Shown here one piece after another: positions 15,895 to 63,279 of a DNA stretch of 64,000 bases. The DNA is taken from assembly GCA_035258805.1 (NCBI GenBank), contig DATFWY010000251.1, positions 843 to 64,842 on the forward strand, in the 5' to 3' direction. The notes below the pieces were generated by a model. It was not told the DNA's origin. It was given only the letters and a program-made list of their open reading frames with translations, and did not search any database. This DNA is from Blastocatellia bacterium. GTDB taxonomy: Bacteria; Acidobacteriota; Blastocatellia; UBA7656. The first letter of the stretch is position 1, and every line of letters begins with the position of its first letter. Position numbers and translations under genes: made by a program.

Positions 15895-16581
15895 TTATCG
15901 CACGGCCGATCCAAATCGCTTTCGGGTTTCACCAGCTGTCGCCTCAATACCCTGCAGCACAAAGCGCGCTAGCGCCTCAGTATACTCGGCCCTAGTGACA
16001 CCTTTAAGGTTCCATCGCTTGAGCGCCCAAGCCGAACACATCAGCGGTAAGACGTTCTCAAGGATTTGACTATTCGGAATGTTGAAGACGCCCCTTTTCA
16101 CGCCGCGCTCGAGAACCTCAGAGAAAATTCGCAAGTAACTCCTTTCTTTTCCAAATACGTCAGAAAGGTGCCCTGAAGTCTTCATCACCCGCGACTCCTG
16201 ATATAACAAGATTATCGCTTCCTGATACTCGTCGGTGTGCTCCATGGCCGCTCTTATCAGTGCCTTGATTTGTTCGACTGGATCGTCACTCTCTTTAGCC
16301 GCGTCCTGGAGCCTATGAGACAACTCGCTAAGAACGTTGTCATAAATCAAGAAAAGAATATCATCCTTGGTCTTTACGTAATCGTAAATTGACCCGTATG
16401 CCAGGCCGGCAAGCTTCGTTACCTGCTTTAAGTTTGTTTCGTGAAAGCCGTTCTCCGTGAAAGCTTTTAGCGCCGCCTCGCAGATCTGTTGCCGGCGCTT
16501 CTGCACAAGCGCCTCGTCCTTCACACTAGTGTGGATTCTATGGCCTCCCAAACTTTTCGTGATCTTGCTGTTGTTATTCAT
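15895..16581 (-). CDS. TetR/AcrR family transcriptional regulator
   Basis: RRQQICEAALKAFTENGFHETNLKQVTKLAGLAYGSIYDYVKTKDDIL HTH; ATG 16581 follows GGGGAGG (track start 16596). Confidence 0.92.
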   Translation of the reverse strand: MNNNSKITKSLGGHRIHTSVKDEALVQKRRQQICEAALKAFTENGFHETNLKQVTKLAGLAYGSIYDYVKTKDDILFLIYDNVLSELSHRLQDAAKESDDPVEQIKALIRAAMEHTDEYQEAIILLYQESRVMKTSGHLSDVFGKERSYLRIFSEVLERGVKRGVFNIPNSQILENVLPLMCSAWALKRWNLKGVTRAEYTEALARFVLQGIEATAGETRKRFGSAVR

Positions 16582-16603
16582 GACATACCTCCCCAACGAA
16601 TCT

Positions 16604-17065
16604 TCAATCCAAACCCTCTCTCAATCTGAACTTGGGTAATGTAATCTCATCGTTGATGTCTTCGAAGAGTACTTCTACATGATTTCCTATATTTACGTCG
16701 CCCGGGTCACAATCAACGACATTGCTCATCATCCGTACACCTTCTTCCAAATCGATCAACGCAAGCACGTAGGGGACTTTGTCCCGAAAGAACGGGGACG
16801 GCGGCCGATGTATTACCGTAAAAGAGTACACAACGCCGCGGCCGCTGCTCTTGCGCCATTCGAAGCGTTCGGAAAGACAATGCGGACATATGAGCCGTGG
16901 ATAAAATCGGAACTTATCGCAATCGAGGCACTGCTGAAGCACAAGCTGGTGACCTCGAGCAGCGTCCCAGTATTCCTGAGAGTCCCGATCGGGCTTCGGC
17001 AAAGGACCTTCATATATCGGCACTGTTAGTTCCCCAATATCAGCGTTGCGTGGCTCGAAAGCCAT
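16604..17065 (-). CDS. DUF35 family Zn-ribbon/OB-fold protein
   Basis: CLDC...CPHC and G-x-VYSFTVIH...PYVLALIDLEEGVRMMSN; true start may be GTG 17023. Confidence 0.92.
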   Translation of the reverse strand: MAFEPRNADIGELTVPIYEGPLPKPDRDSQEYWDAARGHQLVLQQCLDCDKFRFYPRLICPHCLSERFEWRKSSGRGVVYSFTVIHRPPSPFFRDKVPYVLALIDLEEGVRMMSNVVDCDPGDVNIGNHVEVLFEDINDEITLPKFRLREGLD

Positions 17066-18189
17066 CCACCTATGCCGTGGACTAGAGCGGTATTAGCATT
17101 ATGAACTTGCCGGTCTCCGCACTCGCCCCGCAGTTGGCGCACAGCTTCGATGATCAAGAAAATACCCAGGGCGCCAGGGTGCGTATAGCTCAAGCCGCCC
17201 CCAGAAGTATTTGTAGGTAGTGCGCCACTCGGGCCTATCCGACCCCCGCTCACAAAGCTGCCTCCCTCCCCTTTGTTACAAAAACCAAGGTCTTCAAGGG
17301 CCAATATCACGGAGATAGTAAAAGAATCATATATCTCGATCAGATCGATATCCGACGCCGTCATCCCGGCCATACCGTATGCTTGGCGGCCTGAATTGAC
17401 TGCTTCAGTAATGGTAGCATTCGACATTTGAGTGATCGTGTTATGGCTCGTTGCGAACCCTGAACCGAGCACAAACACGGGCGCTTTGCGCAGATCCCGA
17501 GCTCTCTCCGCCGACGTAATGACTACCGCCCCGCCTCCGTCGGTCATCAAACAACAATCGAGCCTTCGAAGGGGCTTGGAGATCATTGGGGAGTCAAGCA
17601 CGTCCTTCACCGTTATCGGCTGTCGCATCACCGCCTTTGGATTTAGCATCGCCCATCGGCGGCTCGATACAGCCACTTCGGCCATTTGTTCTGAAGTGGT
17701 CCCGTATTCGTGCATGTGTCTTGCTGCAGCGAGCGCATATGCGGAGATGGGGGAGAGGTCACCATAAGGCGTTTCGAACTGGGCGGCCGGCATTTGCGGG
17801 TCAACACCGCCTCCCTCTATAACGCGCCTGCGATCCGACCACAGCGAACTTCCGTATGTAATAAGCACTACCTCGCATAATCCCGCTGAGATCGCAAGCG
17901 CCGCGTGCTCAACAAGCGATTCAAAAGCCGAGCCGCCGGTCACGGTTGTGTCGGTAAATCGAAGCCGTAGTCCCAGATATTCCGCGATCTGTAGACTTGG
18001 CAATCCTAAGAAACCCACTGCCATCAGTGAATCGACATCCGACAGCTTCAACCCTGCGTCATTCAGCGCTCTTTTTGCAGCGAGCGCCTGATGCTGCAAA
18101 GCAGTTAACGGTATTCCCTGACCGCAGTCCGACTCGGCCACTCCTGCAATTGCGACGACTCTATTGAAAGCACCTGATTTCAGCCGCAC
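17026..18189 (-). CDS. Thiolase-superfamily protein (SCP-x/Ltp2-like, no nucleophilic Cys)
   Basis: AIAGVAES, DCCLMTDGGGA, EIYDSF, NTSGGGLSYTHPG; TGGSAF sits where thiolases have CAS. Confidence 0.9.
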   Translation of the reverse strand: MRLKSGAFNRVVAIAGVAESDCGQGIPLTALQHQALAAKRALNDAGLKLSDVDSLMAVGFLGLPSLQIAEYLGLRLRFTDTTVTGGSAFESLVEHAALAISAGLCEVVLITYGSSLWSDRRRVIEGGGVDPQMPAAQFETPYGDLSPISAYALAAARHMHEYGTTSEQMAEVAVSSRRWAMLNPKAVMRQPITVKDVLDSPMISKPLRRLDCCLMTDGGGAVVITSAERARDLRKAPVFVLGSGFATSHNTITQMSNATITEAVNSGRQAYGMAGMTASDIDLIEIYDSFTISVILALEDLGFCNKGEGGSFVSGGRIGPSGALPTNTSGGGLSYTHPGALGIFLIIEAVRQLRGECGDRQVHNANTALVHGIGGWLSSHATLILGN

Positions 18190-18199
18190 CTCCGCGAAA

Positions 18200-19645
18200 T
18201 TACATTAATATGATCGCAATTATTGTTGTCGCCGCCAGACCGAGTGTCACCGGAATAAAATTCTTGGCCGCCAATTCTTGTGGAGAAACCCTGCAGATGG
18301 CTGCTACCGGCACAACCCCCCACGGGATGATACAGCCGCCGCCCACCCACACCGTGGCAATTTGTCCGAGCGCCGCGATAGTACTAGCCTTCAGGGTGGC
18401 GACGGATGCGAACGCACCCGCAAGCGAACCCGTGAGCGGCAGCCCGCTGAACCCCGAGCCTACCAAGCCGACGACGCCACCAATGGTCGTCTCCATCAAA
18501 CCGACCGAGATGCGACTGAGCGGCAACACATTTGAGAGCGCACCCGCAAGATCGAACAGCAGACCTCGCGCACCTTCGCCGAAAACCTGTTTGGCGATAT
18601 CAGCCGAGCCCAGATAAAAGAATGAAGCGATGATTATCACCGGCGTGAAAATCTTCATGCCAAAACTGAACCCTTTGATTAGATAGTCGGTGATCATATC
18701 GAAGGCTTCAGCTCGTTTATCCAGGAGCGTGAAGATCGCCAGCAACAGGAGTGTAACTCCGCCGATTATCGACGTTGCTTCACCGCCGCGTATGCGGAAC
18801 GCAATCAGGGCGACGACCACCAGAAGATATGTGAGCGGCACGACACCCGCAGCAACGCGCGCAAGAAGTGCCGGTCTCGGTGGGTCTATTGTTACAGTTG
18901 TAATCTCCGCGGACGCATTGGCAGTACCAACCCCGAATGCGCCAACCGCGGCTTCGGTCGTCAGGTCCCCTGATTTTGACGCTTCTGCGTCCTCGAGTTC
19001 TCGTGCATGTGCTGCAATGTCGCGGCGCGCAATCAGAAAGGACGCCGTCACCGTTACAATGCTCATTGTTAGAATGAGTGGAATTCCACTCAACATAACC
19101 GACTCTACCGGCAAATTCGCTGCCTTCGCACTTATGTTTGGCGCACCCTGGATCACATAGTCCGTTGAGAGCGCAATGCCGTGACCAAAGATGTTCATCG
19201 CCACAGCGGCCGAGATTGCGGGGAGTCTGACCGAGGAAGCCGCTGGTACCAGGACCGCTCCAACCAGCGCGGTAGCAGGTGACGGCCAAAGAAAATAAGA
19301 GGCGACCAGCATCACGAGACCGATTACCCAAAAGGCGATCTCCGGAGACTTCATGAGCTTGCGGGCAGGCGCCACCATCAATTGTTCGGCCCGCATGGCC
19401 TCGAGCCCCGCAGCCAGCCCTACAATCATCGAGATGACTAATATGATATCCAACAACTCTCTCGTGGCTATTACCGAGGATTTGAATACAGTCTCGATCG
19501 CACCTAGCGGAGAACCGGTAATCGTCCAACCAAGGATGAAAGAGCCAGCTATACATGGTATGAGCGCATCGCGCCTTGCGGCCATCGTTATGATGACCGC
19601 TATCACAAACACTGCGTAGATCCAATGGGCTGCAGTCAAGTGCAT
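18200..19645 (-). CDS. Multi-pass membrane protein, putative transporter
   Basis: About 12 hydrophobic segments; likely ATG 19645 (track start 19729). Confidence 0.8.
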   Translation of the reverse strand: MHLTAAHWIYAVFVIAVIITMAARRDALIPCIAGSFILGWTITGSPLGAIETVFKSSVIATRELLDIILVISMIVGLAAGLEAMRAEQLMVAPARKLMKSPEIAFWVIGLVMLVASYFLWPSPATALVGAVLVPAASSVRLPAISAAVAMNIFGHGIALSTDYVIQGAPNISAKAANLPVESVMLSGIPLILTMSIVTVTASFLIARRDIAAHARELEDAEASKSGDLTTEAAVGAFGVGTANASAEITTVTIDPPRPALLARVAAGVVPLTYLLVVVALIAFRIRGGEATSIIGGVTLLLLAIFTLLDKRAEAFDMITDYLIKGFSFGMKIFTPVIIIASFFYLGSADIAKQVFGEGARGLLFDLAGALSNVLPLSRISVGLMETTIGGVVGLVGSGFSGLPLTGSLAGAFASVATLKASTIAALGQIATVWVGGGCIIPWGVVPVAAICRVSPQELAAKNFIPVTLGLAATTIIAIILM

Positions 19646-19689
19646 GAAATGTCTTTGATCCGTGGTTAAATCCGTGCCGTGGCGATTGT

Positions 19690-21297
19690 TCAGCGTCTCA
19701 GCTGATAACCCGCCGCCTCGCGGTCCCATGTTTCAGCGTTGTTACCTTCGGCCTGAAGCTTGTACTTCTCAACTCGCTGAGTGGGTGTCTTAGGCAACTG
19801 TTCGCGGAATTCAACAAAGCGGGGAACCATGAAATACGCCATGCGACTTTCGCAAAACGCGATCAAGTCTTCAGGCTGCAATTTTTCTCCTTCCTTCAGA
19901 ACCACAATTATTTTGAGATCATCCTCGCCAAGATCAGAAGGGACAGGTATCGCAGCAGACTCAAGCACACTCTCGTGTTGATTCACAATGCACTCTACCT
20001 CGAAAGCAGAGATATTCTCTCCCCGTCGCCGAATTGATTCTTTTTTTCTGCCAACGAAGTAAAGGAATCCGTCTTGATCCATATAACCGAGGTCCCCGGT
20101 GTGGAACCACAGGTTTGAGAAGGCGCTTAGAGTCTCTTCCGGCATGTTGTAGTAACCGGACATCATTGTATAAGGCTCCCGCGTACGCATTACGATTTCG
20201 CCTATTTGGCGTGGACCGAGCGATAGATCGTTCTCATCAACTATTCTCACTTCACTGTTGCCGGTCGGTCTTCCGCAACAACCGGGTCGCCGAGGTTCAG
20301 CAATAGCAGGAGGCGCAACAATCCCTTCTGTCAGTCCAAACGTCTCATAGACGACTCGTAACCCGAATCGTCTTTCGAATCCTTCCAGGTCGTCGGGAGG
20401 TGGAACAACCATCGCGAGACGAACTTTGTGATCTTGATCATCGGGGCGCTGCGACGCCTTATAGAGGATATTGCCCATGGCCCCCAAAGCAAGAAACACG
20501 GTCGCCCGTGAGCGCCTTATCTCACTCCAGAAGGTGCTGGCGCTGAAGTGCTCATACATCGAGACCCGCGCGTCAAACAGCAGCGCAGCCATCAGTGTGC
20601 AGACTTGAGCGTTGACGTGAAAGAGCGGTAAACAGGTGTAGAGTGTGTCCTCTGGCCCGTTCCTCATTCCGCTTCCGATCGTCATGGCTGCGTGATAATA
20701 ATAATGATGGCTCATCACCACCCCTTTGGAAGGTCCGGTGGTGCCGCTGGTGAACAGAATTGTCATTGGATCGGAATGTTTGACCTGGGCATACGCGAGC
20801 TCGGCCGACTCAGAGAGCAAAGCAGAGAGTGGGCGTAAGCAAATATCCCCGATTGGTTTAGCCACGCGGTTTGAATCGCTCCAGTCTCTTATGTAGACCG
20901 TCTTGACCTTTCCTATGCCGTTTCCGATCTCAAGGATGCGATCGACAAGAAGAGAATCTGTTATCACTGCTTCAACATCCGATTTGTCTAGCAGGTATCC
21001 CAGCAGATCCCCTTTCTGGGCTGTATTGATCGGAACCATCACCGCTCCGATCTTCGCTAGTCCAAACCAGGAGTAAAGATATTCAGGACAATTAGGCAGC
21101 ATGATGGCGACCTTGGTACCATAACCAATCTTGTTTTGCAGAAAGCCATTCGCTATTCGGTTCGCAATATTGTCCAAATCTTTGTAGGAAACATTAAGTT
21201 CCCCTTTGAAATCCAGGAAGACACGGTCGCCGTGTACGCGGGCCTGTTGACCGAGTACGTTTCCAAGCACTCTCTCTTTGACTGGTAGGTCTAACAC
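19690..21297 (-). CDS. ATP-dependent acyl-CoA ligase (CaiC-like)
   Basis: FTSGTTGPSKG, YETFGLTE, WFHTGDLG, RRRGENIS, PKTPTQRVEK. Confidence 0.92.
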   Translation of the reverse strand: MLDLPVKERVLGNVLGQQARVHGDRVFLDFKGELNVSYKDLDNIANRIANGFLQNKIGYGTKVAIMLPNCPEYLYSWFGLAKIGAVMVPINTAQKGDLLGYLLDKSDVEAVITDSLLVDRILEIGNGIGKVKTVYIRDWSDSNRVAKPIGDICLRPLSALLSESAELAYAQVKHSDPMTILFTSGTTGPSKGVVMSHHYYYHAAMTIGSGMRNGPEDTLYTCLPLFHVNAQVCTLMAALLFDARVSMYEHFSASTFWSEIRRSRATVFLALGAMGNILYKASQRPDDQDHKVRLAMVVPPPDDLEGFERRFGLRVVYETFGLTEGIVAPPAIAEPRRPGCCGRPTGNSEVRIVDENDLSLGPRQIGEIVMRTREPYTMMSGYYNMPEETLSAFSNLWFHTGDLGYMDQDGFLYFVGRKKESIRRRGENISAFEVECIVNQHESVLESAAIPVPSDLGEDDLKIIVVLKEGEKLQPEDLIAFCESRMAYFMVPRFVEFREQLPKTPTQRVEKYKLQAEGNNAETWDREAAGYQLRR

Positions 21298-21383: not shown

Positions 21384-22202
21384 TCATGGATTGCGTAACC
21401 GTCGGCTCTGGACTCGACTGGAAATAGAGCGGAAGGGTCGTTCTCCAATTTGATCCAGAACCCATCTTGTGATGCCTTCTTCGATAGGTTCCCGTTTCGG
21501 ATGCTCCGAGCGCCATACACTGAACATTGTTGTAGCAATGCCAATATCAGCGAAAACCCAGATGCGACTACTCGGATTGCGAGTTAGATTGTAAGCGGCT
21601 GCCATATCCTGAAATCCTGTTCGGTCCTCCTTGCTCACAATCAGGAGCAGAGCCGCGGATCGTTGAGCCCCTATTGCCTTCTTTGCTGATTCGCTAAGAC
21701 GACCGGATATCAAAACGATTGCTTTGATCCTTGGATCCCCTACCGAGCCGAGGATAGCCGCATCCGCGCTCTCCTCTTCTGCCACAATTGCGATCCTCGC
21801 AGGATCAACTGACTCCTGGCCGGCTAGAAACTTGATTGCTCCTCTGACATCGAGGTAGATCTTAGACAACTCGTCGGAGCTGAACGAATGCAACTCCTTT
21901 TTACCCATGCTACTCCCACGACCACGAAGATCTATGCGAAGCGTGGACACACCTTTCCCGCCGATGATCTGTGCAAGGCCGGGATACAGATACTGGCCAT
22001 AGGCTTCACGGTCGTGCGCAAAAGCGTGCAGAAACAACACCGCCGGAGTCTTGTGCGTATCGTTCTTTGGAGCATTAAACATCCCTGATATGGTCCACCC
22101 GTCCTCGGTTTTAAAGGATACTTCTCGCTCGGTCGCAGCCTGATCTGCTGCTGGCTGCGCTGACGGGGTAAGTAATATCGCGAGCAACAGGATTGAGTTC
22201 AT
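21384..22202 (-). CDS. Secreted alpha/beta-hydrolase-fold protein, single A-type domain, triad absent
   Basis: Signal peptide; EVSFKTEDGW, IDLRGRGSS, RIAIVAEEES, LISGRLS. Confidence 0.85.
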   Translation of the reverse strand: MNSILLLAILLTPSAQPAADQAATEREVSFKTEDGWTISGMFNAPKNDTHKTPAVLFLHAFAHDREAYGQYLYPGLAQIIGGKGVSTLRIDLRGRGSSMGKKELHSFSSDELSKIYLDVRGAIKFLAGQESVDPARIAIVAEEESADAAILGSVGDPRIKAIVLISGRLSESAKKAIGAQRSAALLLIVSKEDRTGFQDMAAAYNLTRNPSSRIWVFADIGIATTMFSVWRSEHPKREPIEEGITRWVLDQIGERPFRSISSRVQSRRLRNP

Positions 22203-22240: not shown

Positions 22241-23641
22241 CTACAGGTGCTCCTTCATCCACAGTGACAGGCGTGCAATCAGGTTGTGATCAAGTTCGAA
22301 TAGCTGATATCCGATCGCTCCGCCGTCATAAACTATGATTTCACTCCCTTTCGCCTTCGTGAGACCGTACATTTCGGTCAGCGCTTTTGTTACTGCTTCA
22401 TGTCCGCGGCTCGTCACATAAAGCACGGGGCGGCTTTGAGTGGCGAAGTAAGCCTTTTCCTTTTCTGTAGGAATATAACCGGTCAGCACTACAGCGGTCT
22501 TAATCCTCGGTTCCTCTGCCGCCGCCGCCATTGCGTATTTTGCGCCAATCACAGTTCCTATAATTCCGATTCGTGTTGAATCGACTTCGGGACGAGTTGC
22601 CAGGTAATTTACGGCCGCTTTTGCATCGAGATTGCCCTTATCGCGCTCTGCTTTTGACAATTCAAAGTAATGTCCCTTGCCGGTGCTCTTGCCCTTACCG
22701 CGCCAATCAATGTTCAGGACCGCGAATCCGGATCTTGCTAGAGCGAATTCGAGCTCATGATAAGCGTAGCGATCACTAAGCCCGGAATGAAGGAGAATAA
22801 CCGCCGGCACTTTTACTTCTTTTTTTTGCGGCAGTCGGAGGTTCGCATACAGCGCCCACTCATCTTCTGTTTGAAAGGACACCTCGCTAACCGTGCCGTC
22901 AGCTAAGAGCCGGTTCGCAATCCACTGACCTATTGAAGTACTAAGCGGTATTTCATCCGGGTACTTTTTACTGAAAGACTGCAACATCGCTGTTCCAATG
23001 CCAAGATCGTTGAACACACGAATCTCGGCATTACTTTCTTTGGACCGAAAATACGTGTCGGTCATATCCGCGAATCCCTTTTTGTCTTCCGCACTGACAA
23101 CAAGGAGGAGAGAAAGATCCTTCGATTTGGCAATTTGTTCCTTTGCCCCGTCGTCGAGTCTGCCAGAGAGCAAAGCAATCGCTCCGACTCGCGTATCTCC
23201 TCTGCACCCGTCGACTGCTGCCTGGGCATCGGCGCTGGCTGCTACGATACCCAAGCGCGAGGCATCGATGCCTTTTTGTGCACCCAAAAACTCGAGAGCG
23301 GCCCTGACATCAAGCCGTGTTTGGGAGAGCGCGATTCTGGACGCACCCTTCTGCTCAAGGGTTAAAGTCGCCGCACCTGCGGCGGTGATAATTGGAACGA
23401 GTTGGTTGAGGTCGGAGATAGATTTCTCTTTACCAGCTACGCGATCGATGTTGGGAGCTGGAAGGATTACGACAGCCGGTATACTATCTTGCGCGTTCTG
23501 AGGCATTGCCAGCGTTGCGTTGACGGTCTGCCCTCGCTGATTCTTAAAGGAGACAGGAAGGTCAGCGGCGAGGACTCTTCTGGTAAACAATGGGTAGAAC
23601 AGTGCGATTAAGAACAAGAAAAGCACGGCCCGTTGTTTCAT
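22241..23641 (-). CDS. Secreted tandem (A+B) alpha/beta-hydrolase-fold protein, triad absent
   Basis: Signal peptide; two domains; IDWRGKGKS, GTVIG elbow, YDGGAIGYQLF. Confidence 0.88.
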   Translation of the reverse strand: MKQRAVLFLFLIALFYPLFTRRVLAADLPVSFKNQRGQTVNATLAMPQNAQDSIPAVVILPAPNIDRVAGKEKSISDLNQLVPIITAAGAATLTLEQKGASRIALSQTRLDVRAALEFLGAQKGIDASRLGIVAASADAQAAVDGCRGDTRVGAIALLSGRLDDGAKEQIAKSKDLSLLLVVSAEDKKGFADMTDTYFRSKESNAEIRVFNDLGIGTAMLQSFSKKYPDEIPLSTSIGQWIANRLLADGTVSEVSFQTEDEWALYANLRLPQKKEVKVPAVILLHSGLSDRYAYHELEFALARSGFAVLNIDWRGKGKSTGKGHYFELSKAERDKGNLDAKAAVNYLATRPEVDSTRIGIIGTVIGAKYAMAAAAEEPRIKTAVVLTGYIPTEKEKAYFATQSRPVLYVTSRGHEAVTKALTEMYGLTKAKGSEIIVYDGGAIGYQLFELDHNLIARLSLWMKEHL

Positions 23642-23764: not shown

Positions 23765-23815
23765 GACTGATTGATCGGTCGGAGGATTATATGAACGCCC
23801 AAATATCATTGTCAA
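23765..23815 (-). promoter_or_regulatory. sigma70 promoter plus palindromic operator O1
   Basis: TTGACA (23815-23810), 18-bp spacer, TATAAT (23791-23786); GACTGATTGATCGGTC at 23765-23780. Confidence 0.85.
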
Positions 23816-26083: not shown

Positions 26084-26130
26084 GACCGATCAGTCAGTCA
26101 GATACTACTTACAGTCGTTTCATCAGTCAA
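26084..26130 (-). promoter_or_regulatory. sigma70-like promoter plus operator O2
   Basis: TTGACT (26130-26125), 17-bp spacer, TAGTAT (26107-26102); minus-strand GACTGACTGATCGGTC at 26099-26084. Confidence 0.75.
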
Positions 26131-26229: not shown

Positions 26230-26277
26230 TTGACAAGCTTCCCTCTTTATGCTACGGTCGCGACTGATCGGTCAGTC
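26230..26277 (+). promoter_or_regulatory. sigma70-like promoter plus operator O3
   Basis: TTGACA (26230-26235), 17-bp spacer, TACGGT (26253-26258); GACTGATCGGTCAGTC at 26262-26277. Confidence 0.75.
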
Positions 26278-28040: not shown

Positions 28041-28090
28041 GCGTACAACTCCTGATAAAGATGAGACCCGAAAAGGACTCGGAGGTAACA

Positions 28091-53054: not shown

Positions 53055-53930
53055 TCAATCTACCGATCTCGGAGCGTTCTTCTCTTTACGCGTCCGGTTG
53101 CCAAGTGTTGCCGATAACCAGGAACCAACCATCTCTTCTATGGGCGGTTCGTTTGGAAACTCGAATCGCCAGGTGCTGAACATCGTGGTCCCCATCGCAA
53201 GCCCATCAAAAACCTGTATCCGGCTGTTCCCGTTTTTTGAAGCGAGATAAGCGTCGACCATATCCTTGAGCCCAGGCTTGTCTTCCTTACTGACGAGACA
53301 AAAGATCGGTTTGCGGGTCCTGGAAAATGCATCTACGGCAAAGCGATTGAGACGACCAGAGATCAGAACGCAAGCGACGACGTGTTTGCTTGTTGCAGCC
53401 GCAGTCAAAACGGCGCCGGCAGTATCCTGTTCCCCTACGATGCCAATGTGATTTCGCTTAACTCCTGTTTGCGCTAGGAACTGAAGCGCGGCTTTAACGT
53501 CCAATAGAACGGCCTCCCGCTGCTCCGGAGCCATCGAATGAAATCTCTGCGGCTCGCGACTGGCTCCTCGCCCGCGAATGTCAATTCTAAGCGTCGCAAG
53601 CCCATGGCTGGATAACGTATCTGCCAGGCTGGGGGTCGAAATCTGGCCAAAGGCGTCGGATTCGTGTCTTGAGCCGTGCACCAGGACGACGCCGGGCACC
53701 CTGCCGCTACTTCGCGGGATGTGAAGCGTTCCGATAATTCGCCAACCGTCCTTCGTTTTGAATTCGACTGTTTCCTCGCACCCCAGATCTGCGGCTGACG
53801 CTGCGCTAGCCGCGATGGATGATGCGTTTGAACCCATCTCGCTGCTTCGACGTTGCTCGACCGCACCTGACGCGAATCCTGCTGTGTTCGTCGATTTGGA
53901 TTTCACTGGGCTACACCAGCTTTGAGCCAT
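53055..53930 (-). CDS. Alpha/beta-hydrolase-fold protein, single A-type domain, triad absent
   Basis: VEFKTKDGW, IDIRGRGAS, GEQDT elbow, GLAMGTTMF. Confidence 0.85.
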   Translation of the reverse strand: MAQSWCSPVKSKSTNTAGFASGAVEQRRSSEMGSNASSIAASAASAADLGCEETVEFKTKDGWRIIGTLHIPRSSGRVPGVVLVHGSRHESDAFGQISTPSLADTLSSHGLATLRIDIRGRGASREPQRFHSMAPEQREAVLLDVKAALQFLAQTGVKRNHIGIVGEQDTAGAVLTAAATSKHVVACVLISGRLNRFAVDAFSRTRKPIFCLVSKEDKPGLKDMVDAYLASKNGNSRIQVFDGLAMGTTMFSTWRFEFPNEPPIEEMVGSWLSATLGNRTRKEKNAPRSVD

Positions 53931-56838: not shown

Positions 56839-57841
56839 CTACTTGAATCGAGGAATTACTTCTCGACCAAACAACTCAATGCACCGCAGAACATCCGAGT
56901 GATCAGGTCCGTGCGGATGCCGAAACATCAGGATCATCGTTTCACATCCGATTTCTGTTTGGTACTTCTCTATTTCGCGTATGACTACATCAGGTGTTCC
57001 GGCGATTAAGCGGCCGGATGCCGCCTGCTCGAAGCGCCAGCCTGATGGATCGACTCCTCCAGTGTCTTTGAATAGCCCGAGCTGAACATAAGGTTTATAG
57101 AAAGCCTTCACGCAAGGCCACCATTTGTCTACAACCTCGTGCTGGCTTGGGGCTACCCAGGCGCTTCGCGCCAGTGCCACCTCCGAAGGCCTGCCGTTAT
57201 CGACTGCGGATTGGCGATAAATCTTCGCCCACTCCCTAGTAGTCTCGATTCCCTGAAGATTGTCGGTGGGCCATCCGTCTCCAATTCTTCCTGCCCGCAA
57301 GAGCCCCGGTTTTGAAATCGCGCCAATCCAAATTCGTGGCCCATTCGGCTGCACTGGCCTTGGAGAAACGCGGACGTTTTCCAACTGAAAATGTTCGCCT
57401 GAGAATGAAACCGTCTCTTCAGACCACGCGCGCCTGATTACTTCGACACTTTCCTGGAAACGACGGACGATGCCGTTTTTAGGAATGCCAAAAGCTGATC
57501 GGTTTTTTTTGACCGAGTCCAACTCCGAGTATGAAGCGACCACGAGAGATGTTGTCGACAACTGCAGCAATCTCAGCAACGTGAACCGGATGCCACATTG
57601 GTAGCTGCATAACATCAGACGCAATGATCATCCGACTTGTCCGAGCCGCAAGCGCGGCGGAGAACGTGAGGGCCGATGGCAGGTAGCCATCTGGGCTGTG
57701 ATGGTGCTCGCCCACCACCGCAAAATCGAAGCCGAATTTCTCCGCCGCTTCAGCCTCGCGGAAGGCTTCGTTGTACACCAACGCGATGTTCTCGCCGCGA
57801 GGTGGATCTTGAGTGTTTAGAACTATCCCAAACCGCATCAC
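56839..57841 (-). pseudogene. LLM-class (luciferase-like) flavin-dependent oxidoreductase split by a frameshift
   Basis: N-part 57479-57841 (GEHHHSPDGYLPS, DNISRGRFILGVG); C-part 56839-~57510 (PRPVQPNGPRIWIG). The frames switch at an A8 run (T8 at 57503-57510). Confidence 0.85.
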
Positions 57842-58032: not shown

Positions 58033-59520
58033 TTAATTAATGCTCGCAGCGCGGCCAATTACTTTCTCAACGTCAGCCTCCACTAAGGTTCCTTTGAAGA
58101 AATCGGCATTCGTGCCGGCAAAGAGAGAGACCGGATTTCCGAAAACGAAATCGCGGAAATCGGTTTCAGTAATGAGTTCCTTGTCCACCAGCTCCCAGGC
58201 TTCCTCGACCACTCTTGCCATATCCGGGACATCCCAGTGCGAGATGTCCGAACCGAAGATTGCATTTAGTCGCGCTCCGAATGGATTTACTTTTGAGTTG
58301 AAGGACCACGCATTGATGGGATCATCGGCCTCACAGCCAAAATAGAAGCTATTCACAAAGAGATCGCGAATATCCTCGGCTTTTTGAATATTGCAGTAGG
58401 CCCATTCATCCGGTGTTGGTTCGGTCTGTTTTGCTTCGTCGCGAACGGCGGCTCCGGCCCCAAGAGCCAGCGGATCCCTGCCAAGCTGGTCCAAGCGTGC
58501 ACCCATCGATCCGCCATATTGCTTGTACAGGTCGAATAGCAGTTTGCGATCGAGGTTGGCAGGGTTGGTATTCTCAAGGGCGGAGACGTTGCGCTTCTCC
58601 CAGTGTCCTATCAAATCTGCGTACAAGCTGCACGCCCACCCGACTCCGCACTCAAGGAATGCAAACTTTAGGTTCGGGAACCGCCTTGTCACTCCTCCCA
58701 AAAAAAGAGATTTGCATACCGCTTCGCCGGCTGTAGCGAAGCTGCCAATATGGTTATACACATATGCGGAGATCGAGTTTCTACTTCCCCAACCTGTCGC
58801 GCCGGTATGAAAGCAGGGCGCTACTTTCAGCTCAACGCATTTTGCCCACACAGGATCATAGTCATACTCACTATCCAGCCCATACGTATCCAGCCAGAAT
58901 GCCCATCGCGATGCCTGGGGCATTTCGCGTATGGCGGCGGGAATGGGTCGACGCACATATGCCTGCATGAAAACGACCTTCATTCCCAGCACGTTAACGG
59001 CGTGTTCGAGCTCTTCAATCGCTTCTTGCGGTTTGTGCATCGGTATGACGGCAGCTGCAGTGATGCGATCAGAATATTCCCGGTACAGATCGGCGTAGTA
59101 GGTGTTGTATGCGCGGCAAACTGCGCGGCGCAATTCTTCGTCTTTCGGATAGGTGGCGGACATACCGACAGACGGAAAGAGCACAGTGAAGTCCATCCCG
59201 AATTCATCGAGCCGTTCGTATAGCAGGCGAGGCAGCGTAGCTGTTGCTCGATCCAATGTGTTCTTTGTGGGTGCGCCCCACCAGGGCGAACGGGCAACTC
59301 GTGTATCCAGCCGTTCTTCGGGCGACAGATGGTCCCAGCTGAATAACCTGCTGCCCGCTATTGACGACACGTAGCCGTCGACAACACCTGGTCCGCCGAC
59401 TTGTCTGAGGTAATCCAAGACATCAGGCTCGAACTCAATCATGTGCCCATCACAATCAATAATCGGATGACCTATATGGGCGCGAACGTTCGCAGATTTA
59501 CTCGCGCTGGGCTTGGTCAT
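58033..59520 (-). CDS. Amidohydrolase_2 family protein (decarboxylase/hydratase-like), cytoplasmic
   Basis: IDCDGH, CFHTG, FLECG, FGSDISHWD; likely ATG 59520. Confidence 0.9.
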   Translation of the reverse strand: MTKPSASKSANVRAHIGHPIIDCDGHMIEFEPDVLDYLRQVGGPGVVDGYVSSIAGSRLFSWDHLSPEERLDTRVARSPWWGAPTKNTLDRATATLPRLLYERLDEFGMDFTVLFPSVGMSATYPKDEELRRAVCRAYNTYYADLYREYSDRITAAAVIPMHKPQEAIEELEHAVNVLGMKVVFMQAYVRRPIPAAIREMPQASRWAFWLDTYGLDSEYDYDPVWAKCVELKVAPCFHTGATGWGSRNSISAYVYNHIGSFATAGEAVCKSLFLGGVTRRFPNLKFAFLECGVGWACSLYADLIGHWEKRNVSALENTNPANLDRKLLFDLYKQYGGSMGARLDQLGRDPLALGAGAAVRDEAKQTEPTPDEWAYCNIQKAEDIRDLFVNSFYFGCEADDPINAWSFNSKVNPFGARLNAIFGSDISHWDVPDMARVVEEAWELVDKELITETDFRDFVFGNPVSLFAGTNADFFKGTLVEADVEKVIGRAASIN

Positions 59521-60884
59521 GCTTCTCTCTCCGTTTCGACCAGGACAACCGGATCCGTCCATCCGGCATTTTCTTCCGGCTGCTCGTGCCCGCTCTTAAA
59601 TGTTCGTACTTTACTCGGACGAGCGCTCCAGACCAGCACAATCGATGAAGCTACAACGGCAGTGGCAATGATGAACATTGCGCGGTAGCCGCCGGTCTTA
59701 TCAAAAGCGTAACCACCCAACCATGCGCCGAAGGCTCCACCAAAGCCGCCCAGCATGTTCATCGCTCCAAAAATTGACCCGAATCGCTTCCCCTGAAAAA
59801 CATCTGCCGCTGACGCCATGATCGCCGGAAAACTCATACCGAAACCGACGCCAAAAAAGACCGCGTAACCGTAGAGTAGAATCGTGGTTGGATAAACCTG
59901 AATGAGACTGAGTGCAAGAATCCCGGCAATATAAATGATGGCGCTGAGAGTCAGCGTCTTTTCTCTTCCGACCCGATCCGACAGGATGCCTCCAACGAAA
60001 TTGCCCGCAGTCGACATCAGGCCCTGTAACCCTACAAACGAAGCGGCTGTGATGCTGCTGATTCCGGCTGATTGCAAATAGGCAACCAATTGAACGCCGA
60101 TGAGGAAAGTGGCTCCAGTGGCGACGATGAACAGGAGGGCCAACGCCCAGAAGCGATATGTCCTCGCTGCGTTCTTGAGAGTCCACTCCGTTCCGGCCCA
60201 CTGCCGATCCACAACAACCATCTGACGGCCACGGGCACCGTGCGAGCCAGTCCCGGCGCCGGACGAAACTTCCGGGTGATTCTCGAGGCCCTTATCTGCG
60301 GGCTTGTGCCTTTGAAACAGGATTATGATTGGCACCACTATGACTGTAATGATCGCCGCCAGCCAGATGTAGGCAACACGCCATCCGGAACGTGAAATTA
60401 CATACTGAATTGCCGGAAAGAAAACGAGCCTCCCCAGGCCGAGGCTTGCCATGATGATCCCCAGAGCAGTCGCACGATTACGCCCAAACCAGTTCGAAAT
60501 AATCGCAGCATGCGGCACGACTTGAACCGCACAGAGTCCGACCGCGCCTACCAATCCGAACCAAAGATAGAAATGCCACAACTGGTGAATCTGACTTGAT
60601 CCCACAAAACCAGCGGCGAGAAGCAGGGCCCCAATCGGCATAACAGTGCGTGGCCCGTAACGGTCTATCAGGAGTCCAATCAAAGGTGACAGCGCACCGC
60701 TGACGAACAGATTCAGCGAGTAAACACTTGCCGTCGCTGCGCGCGTCCAGCCAAACTCTGTCAATATTGGCGGGTAGAAGAGAGAGAAGGAAAACCACGC
60801 TGGCGAGACAATTGCCATCGTTACAAATGAGACGGCAACGACAATCCAACCATAGTAGACTTTTTGACTGGGCTTACTGTCCAT
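59517..60884 (-). CDS. MFS transporter (12 TM)
   Basis: YYGWIVV, GLLIDRYGPR, GILSDRVGR. Confidence 0.93.
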   Translation of the reverse strand: MDSKPSQKVYYGWIVVAVSFVTMAIVSPAWFSFSLFYPPILTEFGWTRAATASVYSLNLFVSGALSPLIGLLIDRYGPRTVMPIGALLLAAGFVGSSQIHQLWHFYLWFGLVGAVGLCAVQVVPHAAIISNWFGRNRATALGIIMASLGLGRLVFFPAIQYVISRSGWRVAYIWLAAIITVIVVPIIILFQRHKPADKGLENHPEVSSGAGTGSHGARGRQMVVVDRQWAGTEWTLKNAARTYRFWALALLFIVATGATFLIGVQLVAYLQSAGISSITAASFVGLQGLMSTAGNFVGGILSDRVGREKTLTLSAIIYIAGILALSLIQVYPTTILLYGYAVFFGVGFGMSFPAIMASAADVFQGKRFGSIFGAMNMLGGFGGAFGAWLGGYAFDKTGGYRAMFIIATAVVASSIVLVWSARPSKVRTFKSGHEQPEENAGWTDPVVLVETEREA

Positions 60885-60926: not shown

Positions 60927-61595
60927 CTAATCCTTGGTTTTGAGGTATGCCTTGATACGATTCAACGTTGTCGCACCGATCCCCTTAACTCGCAGCAGAT
61001 CTCCGACTGACCCGAACGCACCGGAGGACTCGCGGCTCTCGACTATTGCTCCGGCAAGCTCAGGCGTCAGACCGGGTAACCGCGCGAGTGCTTCGGCCGA
61101 GCTTGTATTTAGATTCATTGGGAGCTGTTCAATGGGGTTCTTTTCGCCAAAATTTTTCGATAGGTAGTCGATCAGCGGTTGAACATCTTCTTTGTCAACA
61201 GGAGCCTGATACGCTGAGATCATCTTCTGAACAGTAGTGCGCCAGTTGCTGCTTGATTTTTTTTGAGTTATGACCTGACTAAGGTCATGGCAACTCGAGC
61301 ATGCCAGCGCGACCTCAGCCTTCCCCGACCCTTCCGGCAAGAAAACGCTCCAGTCAACTTTCTCCGCTTTAGTTCCAGCGGCATCTTGATTGGCGACCGT
61401 AGAACGCGCTGCGCTAACAAGCGAGGCAACTGCAACCGTCAAACAGATGACACATTTTGTCCATTTCAAACGCGGCAGCCTGGGCGCATCCGAACCGAGC
61501 CTTCCCTCCTGGCTGGCGCGATGCACCGGAGACTGTCCCGTCTCCGGTCGCTTACTATTTGTATTCCTTCTTGGCTCGATCAATCGCCTCGCCAT
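60927..61595 (-). CDS. Cytochrome c plus ComEA-type helix-hairpin-helix fusion
   Basis: CSSCH; MNLNTSSAEALARLPGL...GAF-x-SV-x-DLLRVKGIG. Confidence 0.88.
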   Translation of the reverse strand: MARRLIEPRRNTNSKRPETGQSPVHRASQEGRLGSDAPRLPRLKWTKCVICLTVAVASLVSAARSTVANQDAAGTKAEKVDWSVFLPEGSGKAEVALACSSCHDLSQVITQKKSSSNWRTTVQKMISAYQAPVDKEDVQPLIDYLSKNFGEKNPIEQLPMNLNTSSAEALARLPGLTPELAGAIVESRESSGAFGSVGDLLRVKGIGATTLNRIKAYLKTKD

Positions 61596-63105
61596 AAGCC
61601 TTCCGCGCTTCCTGCTTCATATAGGTTTCAGGGTCGTTGGCGTAGTCTTTCATGTAATCGCCAGGTACGTTTATACCGGGAATTGCTGGAATCCAGTCTT
61701 CGCTCAACAGATCGTCAACGGTGCCATATTCTGGATGACTGGCAACGATCTTTGCGGCCAGTTCTCGAACGCTCGGGTCATCCATTGCTGTCAGGTGCCC
61801 CTTGTCTATGAGCTTTACTTCACGACCATCCTTTAGCTTACAGGTGTAAGTTGCAAAGTAGAGGTGTGCGTGGAAGTGATAAAACGGCAGTGATGGTTTT
61901 TGCCTGAGAGCCCATATCAGGTCGAGCGCCTGGCCAATACCGAGGTGCATAACACCAGAACGATCCCGCTCGCCTATAAAAGTTGGTCGCACGGTCGATG
62001 ATTCAAAGACATTGAACGGACGAATGACTTTTGGAGACGTGCCGATCGCTGCCTCGATGAACCAGTCAATGCCGGGACCGGGATAGTGCGGGAATTTAAC
62101 GTCCTTGTATTTTTCGATGAAGTCGGTCCAGAGCTTACCGAATTCACCGCCCCCTTCGATCCGAGTAATTTTATTGTGCTCCAGGAAGATCTTGATATGC
62201 GGGTAAGGACCTATATGATCAGAAGTACCTGCGACAACCCCATGCAAGTCAGACTTTGGAAGCACGATCCCAAACGGATATCCGGTAAGGTGCCCCGAGA
62301 TGATTGGGTCTTTGAGTGAGCCGTGGTGATAGACGTGAGTGCCGAATCCCTCGGTTTGGTAGCCCGGGTAGTTGCCATCCATTATTTGCCAGTACTCAGG
62401 GAACCAGGTAAACGTGACATCCGTTCCTTCCGGATCGGTGATCCTTACGGTATCGGTCTGCCTGAGGACTTTCCAGGAGACGCGATCCATCGCCTCGATA
62501 AGTTCCTCCGGGTACATTACCGCGGGGCTCGCGAGTTGCTCGCGTGTGGGCCAATCCATTGAAAAGCTGTAATACTTCAGCGTGCAGTTATTGTTTGCCC
62601 AAAAGGTTTGTCCGATTACCTTGTCATAGCCGGATTTCTTTGCGACTTCTTCTGTCCACTCGGGCCCCCCGAGCATCCACGCAGCCGGTTGGCTATCTAC
62701 AAGGATCTTCATCAGTTCGGGTGTTTTGAAGAGCCTTCTCTTTCCTTGCTCCTGGAAGACGTCGACCTGACACTTCATTTCGTCCCTGAGTACGCGCATG
62801 AAGGCTTCGAGCACCAATGGGTCAACATCGCTGTCTATGACGAAGAGGACTTTCTCGCCTCCTTTAACCGCATAGCCGGGGCGTTGATCGCCGGTATAGG
62901 GCATTGGTCTCTGGACTATTCGGCGGACGTAAGGGAGGAGCTGATCGGCGGTAGTAATCTCGGGGATCTTAGGATAACGTGGCGCCGGATAATCAAACTT
63001 AGCAGCTAGTGGCTTTTCGCTTCTTGCGTGTGATGGAACAGTAGCAGGTAAAAAGACGAGAAGCGCGATTGAGACGATGAATAGGCGGAAAGCTTTTCTA
63101 AACAT
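61555..63105 (-). CDS. Secreted M29-aminopeptidase/NicX-fold metalloprotein 2
   Basis: Likely ATG 63105 with signal peptide; EAAIGTSP, HLGIG, HFHAH. Confidence 0.7.
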   Translation of the reverse strand: MFRKAFRLFIVSIALLVFLPATVPSHARSEKPLAAKFDYPAPRYPKIPEITTADQLLPYVRRIVQRPMPYTGDQRPGYAVKGGEKVLFVIDSDVDPLVLEAFMRVLRDEMKCQVDVFQEQGKRRLFKTPELMKILVDSQPAAWMLGGPEWTEEVAKKSGYDKVIGQTFWANNNCTLKYYSFSMDWPTREQLASPAVMYPEELIEAMDRVSWKVLRQTDTVRITDPEGTDVTFTWFPEYWQIMDGNYPGYQTEGFGTHVYHHGSLKDPIISGHLTGYPFGIVLPKSDLHGVVAGTSDHIGPYPHIKIFLEHNKITRIEGGGEFGKLWTDFIEKYKDVKFPHYPGPGIDWFIEAAIGTSPKVIRPFNVFESSTVRPTFIGERDRSGVMHLGIGQALDLIWALRQKPSLPFYHFHAHLYFATYTCKLKDGREVKLIDKGHLTAMDDPSVRELAAKIVASHPEYGTVDDLLSEDWIPAIPGINVPGDYMKDYANDPETYMKQEARKAYGEAIDRAKKEYK

Positions 63106-63230
63106 AGATTGCCTCGTTATCCGGGAGAGGTTGTAGTTTCTAAGGTTGCGCAAGAGGTTCGGGAAGGGACGCTGCTTATGTTGCGCTGGCACTCCTGCAT
63201 CTGCCTACGTTTCCATCTTTTGGGGATGCT

Positions 63231-63279
63231 GACTGATTGGTCGGTCACCTATTTATCAAACCGCTTGTTCAGATGTCAA
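63231..63279 (-). promoter_or_regulatory. sigma70-like promoter plus operator O4
   Basis: TTGACA (63279-63274), then TGaTAAATA -10-like sequence; GACTGATTGGTCGGTC at 63231-63246. Confidence 0.75.

Follow-up and report, generated by a model that had tools for sequence, protein, structure and literature searches.

A predicted TetR-type operator links two loci of a putative catabolic gene set in a soil Blastocatellia bacterium

Do the genes crowded between positions 15895 and 63279 of a 64,000 nt stretch of acidobacterial DNA form one system, and if so, what would that system do? The stretch, called the window below, covers positions 843-64842 of contig C251 (DATFWY010000251.1) in the draft genome (8.26 Mb, 338 contigs, 98.7% complete) of a soil Pyrinomonadaceae bacterium (Acidobacteriota, Blastocatellia). 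It holds 37 genes (g01 to g37) in four transcription units between 15895 and 63192. A preliminary description of the window had proposed a single-regulator, largely periplasmic system of about 47 kb, either catabolic or biosynthetic, and its gene inventory agrees with the Pfam and NCBIfam assignments. The answer put forward here, which we hold to be probable rather than secure, is that the genes form a substrate-inducible catabolic regulon, and not a biosynthetic one, in which import is followed by periplasmic processing and CoA-dependent breakdown.

The four units are each headed by a promoter that overlaps or adjoins the same 16 bp palindrome, GACYGAYYRRTCRGTC, found at 23765, 26084, 26262 and 63231. 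When up to two mismatches are tolerated, the operator pattern matches the window 11 times against 0.95 expected, a count reached by none of 100 shuffled sequences. Strict sites number eight in the whole genome, four in the window and four on contig C154, with none elsewhere, and the operator read backwards as a control gave no matches across the whole genome. Each operator starts 1-6 nt past a −10 box. Two of the promoters (TTGACA-18-TATAAT and TTGACT-17-TAGTAT) were detected by the promoter scan; the other two (TTGACA-17-TACGGT and TTGACA-18-TAAATA) lie under the scan threshold and were read by eye. The operators and the units that they head are as follows.

O1, g07 promoter, 23765..23780: −35 at 23815-23810 and −10 at 23791-23786, minus strand; 12/12 promoter match
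O2, g08 promoter, 26084..26099: promoter at 26130-26102, minus strand; operator 1 nt past the −10 box
O3, g09 promoter, 26262..26277: TTGACA at 26230-26235, TACGGT at 26253-26258; operator 3 nt past the −10 box, hexamers read by eye
O4, g37 promoter, 63231..63246: −35 at 63279-63274 and −10 at 63255-63250, minus strand; operator 3 nt past the −10 box, hexamers read by eye
Unit g07 to g01, minus strand: 7.75 kb
Unit g08 alone, minus strand: 2.1 kb
Unit g09 to g13, plus strand: 8.1 kb
Unit g37 to g14, minus strand: 28.6 kb
g01, 15895..16596, minus strand: TetR-family regulator (TetR_N and TetR_C_24), final gene of the 7.7 kb unit

The site statistics and the position of the sites behind the −10 boxes uphold the four operator-bearing promoters of the preliminary description, and the measured units match its sizes of about 7.7, 2.1, 8.1 and 28.5 kb. 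Intergenic gaps are mostly below 100 nt, and the only larger ones inside the 28.6 kb unit are at 51390-51542 (153 nt) and 57842-58032 (191 nt). A relaxed operator, with any four central bases, added two exact sites (on C139 and C144) and 74 sites with one mismatch, which were taken as chance matches. One copy with a single mismatch and a typical centre, CACCGATTGGTCGGTC at C58:7613, is possibly a ninth site.

The likely regulator is g01, which scores above the cut-offs for both TetR_N (34.5 bits) and TetR_C_24 (41.2 bits). Since it ends an operator-headed unit, it would be autoregulated. Its 70% identical orthologue in G034, a genome from another family of the class, also adjoins the operator. 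The operator is kept at orthologous promoters, or before genes of the cluster type, in G034, in G014 (same genus; the L034 record) and at loci L026, L027 (which also has a TetR gene), L029 and L039. Together, these features would fit control of all units by g01 at the predicted operator.

The regulon is larger than the window. Contig C154 (44.7 kb) is the second operator-bearing locus, with about 40 kb of the system there against about 47 kb in the window. It carries paralogues of g03 (47% identity), g05 (55%), g19 (37%) and g35 (46%), and also of g13, g21 and g22. Genes for CoA-dependent breakdown that are absent from the window are present on C154: a crotonase (ECH), a short-chain dehydrogenase (SDR), three acyl-CoA dehydrogenases (ACADs), a fused electron-transfer flavoprotein (ETF) and an aldehyde dehydrogenase resembling 2,5-dioxovalerate dehydrogenase. 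One of the ACADs is pimeloyl-CoA-dehydrogenase-like (pimC model) and another cyclohexane-1-carbonyl-CoA-dehydrogenase-like, both with scores below cut-offs. The same contig has a second DUF35 gene with a thiolase retaining its Cys, two PaaK-like ligases, three Amidohydro_2 proteins (one with a twin-arginine translocation, TAT, signal), a gamma-glutamyltranspeptidase (GGT), a dihaem oxidoreductase and an aspartate-dehydrogenase-like gene, the last grouped with this second locus.

In two relatives, genes of the C154 type and of the window type are interleaved within single contigs. The order in G014 includes g17-g16-g15, then the block corresponding to C154 31417-39646, then g14; in G034 it includes g05-g04-g03-g02-g08, the TAT Amidohydro_2 gene (C154 43226) and the block corresponding to C154 15401-24558. 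Because of this interleaving, both loci are taken as one system of about 90 kb. The gene order thus supports a single, putatively co-regulated and co-inherited system, split here over two contigs and contiguous in relatives. At its right end the system continues past the g37 promoter with a BNR/sortilin-like protein, a SnoaL-like gene, a g35-type transporter of the major facilitator superfamily (MFS) and an amidohydrolase, reaching the contig end. The extent of about 47 kb given in the preliminary description is therefore too small by about half, since the regulon runs beyond 63279 and onto C154. The first gene of this continuation lies partly in the window:

63334..64000, minus strand: start of the upstream continuation, secreted BNR/sortilin-like protein; remainder off the window

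If the genes act together, they might be expected to occur together in other genomes. Nearly all window genes have orthologues of 45-87% identity in G034 and G014, and the order of the g18-g27 core is kept in G034, in G014 (split over its contigs C406 and C261), in ACE_ACI1 (L023/L041), in SMAG_U8334 and in SMAG_U854. The tandem alpha/beta-fold family described below is found in two of the 40 nearest relatives and in six of 401 genomes of the class, spread over five of 88 genera and four families. Four of the five other carriers have orthologues of the thiamine diphosphate (ThDP) enzyme g26 and the GMC flavoprotein g19 (68-87% identity); seven complete non-carrier controls lack them, one having only a 35% ThDP homologue. 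Long metagenome contigs, among them one of 120 kb shared by P0005 and P0060, also hold homologues of g15 and g26. Orthologues of g15 (NicX-like; 75-87%) occur in three of these four ThDP- and GMC-bearing carriers, and a 36% relative in G052. The carrier G310 has alpha/beta genes without the ThDP, GMC and NicX-like genes. The alpha/beta, M29-like, TAT-ThDP and GMC genes singled out in the preliminary description are thus found together and in synteny in other genomes, with the operator at orthologous promoters. The patchy spread, the 65-74% identity across families and an integrase fragment at the left of the cluster would fit horizontal spread. The public record of G014 (loci L022/L034/L038) is labelled 'uncultured Clostridia bacterium'; its genes and placement are those of Pyrinomonadaceae, and the label is probably wrong.

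One distinctive component of the system is a pair of adjacent genes in the long unit.

g25, 46522..47412, minus strand: trihaem cytochrome c, three CXXCH motifs
g26, 47434..49332, minus strand: TAT-exported ThDP enzyme, benzoylformate-decarboxylase-like; three TPP domains, SRRGFL

The g26 protein has the three TPP domains (N, M and C), the GDG-x26-NN motif and the conserved Glu of the ThDP superfamily, features shared with benzoylformate decarboxylases (BFDC), cyclohexane-1,2-dione hydrolase (CDH) and pyruvate oxidase (PoxB). It differs from them by its TAT export and its genetic coupling to a c-type cytochrome. Its best sequence matches in the PDB are BbmA, BFDC and CDH; against 51 NCBIfam models all scores are far under cut-off (best PRK08327, 202 against 456 bits), and none of the other ThDP enzymes encoded in the genome is more than about 28% identical to it. 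By these comparisons, g26 does not appear equivalent to a characterised member such as BFDC, ALS, POX, CDH or Xsc. A word-limited protein search gave 530 homologues at E ≤0.001, about 45 of them close ones from Blastocatellia. At about 40% identity there is a large group whose members match g26 in length and carry its N-terminal TAT motif ('...YL..G.SRR...'); those with names come from metagenome-assembled genomes (MAGs) of Verrucomicrobiae and Deltaproteobacteria.

In six of eight distant contexts (short P0101 contigs counted once), a cytochrome of 172-183 aa begins within 0-8 nt after the g26 homologue. The cytochromes that were translated (L043, L046 and L048) are dihaem proteins, 33-39% identical to the g25 repeats (E about 1e-33 to 1e-35). 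Since the other neighbours vary between contexts, the pair is regarded as a self-contained unit. Loci with the pair are L043, L046, L048, L049, L050 and L051, where it often stands alone. UbiD-family genes lie near it in three contexts, a weak hint at aromatic acids. The pair points to a periplasmic decarboxylating dehydrogenase in which the ThDP enzyme would donate electrons to the cytochrome. PoxB is a precedent for a ThDP enzyme that feeds electrons into the respiratory chain, in that case to quinone; no periplasmic ThDP enzyme was found in the literature searched.

An earlier reading had assigned the trihaem cytochrome to the GMC enzyme encoded nearby. It pairs instead with the ThDP enzyme, and its homologues occur in six contexts without a GMC gene. 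The GMC enzyme and its presumed partners are:

g19, 41134..42633, minus strand: GMC flavoprotein without signal (candidate TAT hitch-hiker); GMC_oxred_N and GMC_oxred_C
g20, 42641..43291, minus strand: TAT small protein, SRREFL; Gluconate_2-dh3 22.1 bits, under the cut-off of 23.4
g23, 44204..44971, minus strand: TAT small protein, SRRDFI; Gluconate_2-dh3 20.1 bits, under the cut-off of 23.4

The GMC domains of g19 are clear, and its PDB relatives, including the fructose dehydrogenase large subunit, are only weak. A signal-less GMC subunit beside a TAT small subunit recalls the three-subunit flavoprotein-cytochrome c dehydrogenases (fructose, gluconate 2-, sorbitol and glucoside 3-dehydrogenases). 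Here, however, there are two paralogous small subunits (g20 and g23, 38% identical), and both score below the family cut-off. The GMC enzyme has no demonstrable cytochrome of its own, because g25 homologues elsewhere accompany TAT-ThDP genes without GMC.

The second distinctive component is a family of alpha/beta-fold proteins, all copies of which in this genome (seven genes, 12 domains) are confined to the cluster.

g06, 21384..22202, minus strand: single triad-less alpha/beta domain, Sec signal; paralogue of g07, g18 and g24
g07, 22241..23641, minus strand: tandem triad-less alpha/beta protein, Sec signal, first in the 7.7 kb unit
g18, 39636..41108, minus strand: tandem triad-less alpha/beta protein, no signal peptide; AlphaFold2 (AF2) pLDDT 90
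g24, 44996..46462, minus strand: tandem triad-less alpha/beta protein, Sec signal
g30, 53055..53930, minus strand: single triad-less alpha/beta domain
g31, 53903..55240, minus strand: tandem alpha/beta protein, degenerate first domain, no signal
g32, 55308..56795, minus strand: tandem triad-less alpha/beta protein, no signal

The AF2 model of g18 (pLDDT 90, pTM 0.87) consists of two minimal alpha/beta-hydrolase domains, and Foldseek matched it to generic esterases and lipases (E 6e-14 to 1e-9), in agreement with an alpha/beta-hydrolase fold. The catalytic positions were located by profile alignment to three solved esterases, using an alignment (A1) of eight tandem sequences (g07, g18, g24, g31, g32 and three orthologues). 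At the nucleophile site, the Ser of GLSMGG in the esterases, domain 2 has Y, S, V, L or H and domain 1 has E, S, K or G, with no conservation. The site of the catalytic His (GGDH) is occupied by V, I or A in GGAVGYQLF, and there is no invariant His in A1. Judged by this alignment, the canonical Ser-His triad is absent, which confirms the lack of triads already noticed in the preliminary description. Other residues are invariant in the family (D308-R309, R332/G333/G335/K336/S337, K340, Y343, D357, Y456 and Y463), so the proteins are evidently under selection. In-frame stops that appeared inside alpha/beta matches proved to be only boundaries of adjacent genes (g06/g07).

With 96 matches below 1e-30 among 1.84 billion representatives, the family is rare. 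Related loci were recovered with the family alignment, a search with the single g18 sequence having found none. In related Blastocatellia the family sits among cluster-type genes, and a module of alpha/beta protein, amidohydrolase and monocarboxylate-type MFS recurs. Outside the Acidobacteria, it lies beside three TonB-dependent receptors in a gammaproteobacterium; in a Chloroflexota MAG its neighbours include ACADs, a family-III CoA transferase and a ThDP enzyme. The probable role of the triad-less domains is substrate binding or catalysis of a non-canonical kind.

Two secreted proteins without any Pfam match, g15 and g37, are found with a set of amidohydrolases in the same unit.

g15, 36093..37547, minus strand: secreted NicX/M29-fold protein, by AF2 fold match
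g37, 61555..63192, minus strand: secreted NicX/M29-fold protein, first in the 28.6 kb unit; 31% identical to g15
g16, 37644..39026, minus strand: periplasmic amidohydrolase near the Caulobacter-type Xaa-Pro dipeptidase; Amidohydro_1, NF051886 461 bits against a cut-off of 500
g27, 49418..50908, minus strand: periplasmic amidohydrolase
g29, 51543..53021, minus strand: periplasmic or membrane-anchored amidohydrolase
g34, 58033..59562, minus strand: cytoplasmic Amidohydro_2 protein (decarboxylase/hydratase-type TIM barrel); weak PDB relatives PtmU3, 2,3-dihydroxybenzoate decarboxylase and ACMSD

A PDB sequence search with g15 gave nothing useful. Its AF2 model (pLDDT 81) matched NicX best in Foldseek (E 2e-16), followed by M29 aminopeptidases (AmpS, 4e-11), and on this modelled structure g15 and g37 can be placed in the NicX/M29 fold. 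In an alignment that includes g37 (A2), D148, E199, D230, H267, H384 and H405 are nearly invariant. The metal ligands of NicX, a 2,5-dihydroxypyridine dioxygenase, are His/Ser/His/Asp and those of M29 aminopeptidases Glu/Glu/His/His/Asp. The proteins of the cluster share the fold with both, but they are secreted and have no detectable sequence similarity to either.

The CoA-dependent part of the window is concentrated in the unit that ends with the regulator, and is listed here with the two putative carboxylate carriers.

g02, 16604..17065, minus strand: DUF35 protein (Zn ribbon and OB fold), 153 aa; zf-ChsH2 and OB_ChsH2_C
g03, 17026..18189, minus strand: thiolase-fold protein, nucleophilic Cys lost (Ltp2-like aldolase type); Thiolase_C_1
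g04, 18200..19729, minus strand: polytopic membrane protein with at least 10 hydrophobic segments; a probable carboxylate carrier
g05, 19690..21297, minus strand: acyl-CoA ligase, AMP-binding; nearest NCBIfam model PRK06155, under cut-off
g35, 59517..60884, minus strand: MFS transporter of the monocarboxylate/oxalate-formate family; paralogues on C154 and at the C251 end

At the site where the true thiolase of C154 has ACASGG, g03 has TGGSAF. The true start of g04 is probably later than annotated (giving 481 aa); its homologues are named 'transporter', a few of them with PF03606 DcuC, and a PDB sequence search with it gave nothing useful. The pairing of a thiolase-fold protein with a DUF35 Zn-ribbon/OB protein, next to a CoA ligase, recalls Ltp2-ChsH2(DUF35) and BbsAB, and g03 is Cys-less like Ltp2. 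In contrast to Ltp2-ChsH2, the DUF35 protein here is free-standing and not the C-terminus of a MaoC hydratase, and the hydratase is a crotonase in the second locus. Steroid or bile-acid degradation, which the Ltp2-like pair had suggested, was dismissed, as neither locus has MaoC or other steroid genes.

The remaining genes of the window are:

g08, 23933..26068, minus strand: secreted FG-GAP/VCBS repeat protein, 13 FG-GAP_3 repeats; comes straight after g02 in G034
g09, 26400..27002, plus strand: small membrane protein (four transmembrane segments), no known family; orthologues follow the operator in G034 and G014
g10, 27117..28040, plus strand: FGE-sulfatase/PvdO-like lipoprotein; FGE-sulfatase 226 bits, PvdO (141 bits) and GldK under cut-offs
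g11, 27965..31270, plus strand: TonB-dependent receptor, acidobacterial type; CarboxypepD_reg and OMP_b-brl_4, 643 bits
g12, 31334..32956, plus strand: secreted protein with CarboxypepD_reg, one haem c domain and a Vgb-lyase-like propeller; CISCH at residue 164
g13, 32976..34496, plus strand: TAT-signal PQQ-like beta-propeller; PQQ_2/PQQ, SRRTFL
g14, 34553..36052, minus strand: MFS transporter, possibly an exporter, last in the long unit; MFS_1, at least 10 hydrophobic segments
g17, 39050..39568, minus strand: secreted SnoaL-like (NTF2-fold) protein
g21, 43359..43706, minus strand: GYD-domain protein
g22, 43750..44136, minus strand: secreted Dabb (alpha+beta barrel) protein
g28, 50928..51389, minus strand: secreted DUF4440/SnoaL-like protein
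g33, 56839..57841, minus strand: luciferase-like monooxygenase (LLM), frameshifted; break near 57491-57510
g36, 60927..61595, minus strand: membrane-anchored monohaem cytochrome c with a ComEA-like helix-hairpin-helix domain; haem module as in g25

Besides its seven alpha/beta genes, the window thus encodes two MFS, three Amidohydro_1, one Amidohydro_2 and two SnoaL-like proteins, and none of the key proteins received an equivalog-level NCBIfam name. The haem domain of g12 is homologous to the g25 repeats. A motif scan found TAT motifs within the first 60 residues of g13, g20, g23 and g26, and about 17 more products have Sec, lipoprotein or anchor N-termini, as read by eye. The term 'largely periplasmic' is therefore fair overall, the exceptions being g18, g30, g31 and g32, which have no signal, and the CoA module, g21, g33 and g34, which are cytoplasmic. 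Both frames of g33 match one intact orthologue of 334 aa in G034, so the gene has either become a pseudogene recently or been misassembled.

No PqqC was found with the PqqC profile in this 98.7% complete genome, and the description of g13 as 'PQQ-type' is for that reason retained for the fold only; a working pyrroloquinoline quinone (PQQ) dehydrogenase was ruled out on the same ground. Of the redox set first described, two members need qualifying as working enzymes, the PQQ-type protein and the frameshifted LLM. The genome encodes several PQQ-like propellers while PQQ synthesis seems to be absent from it. On C154, two genes (17922-18650 and 33800-34516) encode Haem_oxygenas_2/PqqC-like iron enzymes, one of them the top PqqC match of the genome at a score far below threshold. 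A polysaccharide utilisation locus of the Bacteroidota type, with its SusC/SusD pair, was likewise ruled out: g11 is of the acidobacterial OMP_b-brl_4 type, and the Pfam calls include no SusD or glycoside hydrolase.

To the left of the cluster, a short open reading frame (ORF) at 14499-14874 matches only residues 19-58 of the phage-integrase profile and appears to be an integrase remnant. A tRNA-Lys fragment considered at this border was discarded, as neither ARAGORN nor Rfam detected a tRNA or fragment in 12000-16000. The ORF at 13712-14284 has a CarS-like domain (CDP-archaeol synthase family), odd for a bacterium, and lies between the integrase remnant and an upstream receptor. The latter belongs to the region 6359-12114, which carries a second TonB-dependent receptor of acidobacterial type (1270 aa) together with an alpha/beta hydrolase whose Abhydrolase_1 matches are ordinary; this region has no operator and is probably unrelated.

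How might these parts work together? In the proposed scheme, g01 would repress at least eight promoters by binding the palindrome over the transcription start, and would be released by the substrate or an intermediate. The substrate would cross the outer membrane through the receptor g11 and be hydrolysed in the periplasm by g16, g27 and g29 (Xaa-Pro-dipeptidase or N-acyl-amino-acid type), with g15 and g37 taking part in periplasmic processing as NicX/M29-fold metalloproteins. The GMC enzyme g19 would probably be exported with the TAT small subunits g20 and g23. The ThDP enzyme g26 would catalyse the oxidative decarboxylation of a 2-oxo acid, perhaps one made by the GMC enzyme, and pass the electrons to its own multihaem cytochrome g25. 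Monocarboxylic acids would then enter the cell by the MFS transporters of the MCT/OFA type (g35 and paralogues) and the DcuC-like g04, be activated by g05 and the PaaK-like ligases, and be degraded by the hydratase, the Cys-less thiolase/DUF35 aldolase, the true thiolase, the acyl-CoA dehydrogenases and ETF. The 12 triad-less domains are the hallmark of the system, and the recurrence of their modules resembles that of paralogous modules in polysaccharide utilisation.

The substrate is more difficult to specify. A weak leaning, tentative at best, is towards amide-conjugated aromatic or alicyclic carboxylic acids. The families behind it are the BFDC-like ThDP enzyme, the NicX fold, the decarboxylase-type Amidohydro_2, the PaaK-like ligases, the SnoaL and Dabb folds, the ACADs resembling pimeloyl- and cyclohexanecarboxyl-CoA dehydrogenases, and the amidohydrolases of N-acyl-amino-acid type. 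Other candidates are peptides and amide-linked hydroxy-acid lipids.

The preliminary description offered two directions, and the genes of both loci argue for the first, that is uptake, periplasmic oxidation or cleavage and CoA activation, to which C154 adds a beta-oxidation set. Catabolism is favoured because of the TonB-dependent uptake, the several monocarboxylate-type MFS, the CoA ligase with the beta-oxidation set, the cytochrome-linked periplasmic dehydrogenases and the lack of a biosynthetic core: the Pfam calls in either locus include no polyketide synthase (PKS), nonribosomal peptide synthetase (NRPS), terpene, NIS synthetase or glycosyltransferase core. The other direction, in which a siderophore-like or redox-active secondary metabolite would be made, matured in the periplasm, exported and taken up again by the TonB-dependent receptor, could draw on g10, which resembles PvdO, the periplasmic pyoverdine maturation enzyme (141 bits), on the large MFS g14 as a possible exporter type, on the likeness of the PaaK-like ligases to the biosynthetic ligases FlxY and BagE, and on the SnoaL and Dabb folds, which are frequent in polyketide tailoring. 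However, the lack of a core just described stands against synthesis, as do the degradative character of the CoA part (ECH, thiolase, ACADs and ETF) and the monocarboxylate type of the MFS copies. It is also typical of inducible catabolism that every promoter bears a repressor operator. We rate this explanation as very unlikely.

Scavenging of peptides or proteins is somewhat easier to entertain. Decayed S9/S15/S33 peptidases would then serve as binding modules, the amidohydrolases as dipeptidases and the M29-fold proteins as aminopeptidases, and the redox enzymes would act on amino and 2-oxo acids. The alpha/beta domains do match Peptidase_S9, S15 and S33 models, the Caulobacter Xaa-Pro dipeptidase model gives g16 a score of 461 bits, the fold of g15 is also M29 aminopeptidase-like, the second locus includes genes for a gamma-glutamyltranspeptidase and an aspartate-dehydrogenase-like protein, and isolates of Blastocatellia have a known preference for proteinaceous substrates. 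It remains improbable in our view: a CoA ligase and aldolase, three ACADs with ETF and a ThDP-cytochrome module would be superfluous for ordinary peptide use, the fold of g15 is closer to NicX, and the set is absent from 395 of 401 class genomes and so is not a general nutritional trait. A similarly small chance is given to a mobile island of independent catabolic modules, each with its own substrate and sharing a regulator only through joint assembly. Module order and copy number do vary, with triads of alpha/beta protein, amidohydrolase and MFS in L027, L028, L031, L037 and L039, G310 has the alpha/beta proteins without the ThDP, GMC and NicX-like genes, the ThDP-cytochrome pair also occurs alone elsewhere, and an integrase fragment lies left of the cluster; yet the g18-g27 order is conserved in G034, G014, ACE_ACI1 and SMAG_U8334, and one operator would govern the periplasmic and CoA modules alike.

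Several points weigh against the preferred reading of one substrate-inducible catabolic regulon. Its functional steps are read from family membership, often with scores below curated cut-offs, and the hallmark alpha/beta proteins may not take part in catalysis. The large MFS g14 could be an exporter, and PaaK-like ligases and PvdO-like proteins such as g10 are also found in biosynthetic contexts. The 153 and 191 nt gaps of the 28.6 kb unit could contain internal promoters without an operator, and the LLM (g33) is frameshifted here. The data are from draft genomes and MAGs (the named carriers are MAGs, and the genome itself is in 338 contigs), so mis-binning or assembly errors may have occurred, and the system is not known from any isolate. 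Mis-binning is countered by synteny on independent contigs, namely L023/L041 (overlapping stretches, one record), L024, L032 and G034 C144.

The closest parallels in logic are the polyethylene glycol (PEG; pegBCDAER) and polyvinyl alcohol (PVA; pva) operons of sphingomonads, which combine TonB-dependent uptake, periplasmic dehydrogenation, a permease, an acyl-CoA ligase and one regulator. The PEG dehydrogenase is a GMC enzyme; that of PVA is a PQQ enzyme with cytochrome c, and PVA degradation also has an alpha/beta-fold hydrolase step. The present system differs in its size of about 70 genes, its triad-less alpha/beta proteins, its ThDP-cytochrome module, its NicX/M29-fold proteins and its several amidohydrolases, and its regulator is of the TetR family where that of the PEG and PVA operons is AraC. 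It is a probable inducible catabolic supercluster, in logic like TetR-controlled catabolic islands generally, and not a member of the named systems. Literature on Pyrinomonadaceae clusters, periplasmic or TAT ThDP enzymes, ThDP enzymes with cytochrome c and periplasmic pseudo-hydrolases was searched with nothing relevant found; no published pathway matched, which leaves intact the earlier view that the combination is not a recognised pathway.

At least two component types look new, the TAT-ThDP/cytochrome pair and the triad-less tandem alpha/beta family. It is possible, though doubtful, that they are the basis of an undescribed periplasmic oxidative pathway, with a TAT-ThDP : cytochrome c 2-oxo-acid/diketone oxidoreductase and tandem alpha/beta proteins in which the triad has been replaced, and by which a few soil Blastocatellia would respire recalcitrant amide-linked organic acids of soil organic matter. 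The substitutes proposed for the triad are the DR after the oxyanion strand, RGRGKS...KG.Y and GYQLF. If this is true, the alpha/beta proteins would serve the neighbouring amidohydrolases as catalysts or as obligatory carriers of substrate, and the TAT-ThDP/cytochrome module would be a widespread enzyme, beyond the Acidobacteria, that is uncharacterised.

Acidobacteria are among the most abundant soil bacteria, and few of their catabolic pathways are known. The gene set described here is large, well delimited and transferable, with one operator at no fewer than eight promoters, and this readable regulatory code makes the system experimentally approachable: the repressor could serve as bait or biosensor, leading to the inducer and from there to the substrate. 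The triad-less family may be a case of an old fold put to a new kind of catalysis, or of bacterial pseudo-hydrolases used as binding modules, and the TAT-ThDP/cytochrome pair suggests that ThDP chemistry can be wired to the respiratory chain outside the cytoplasm.

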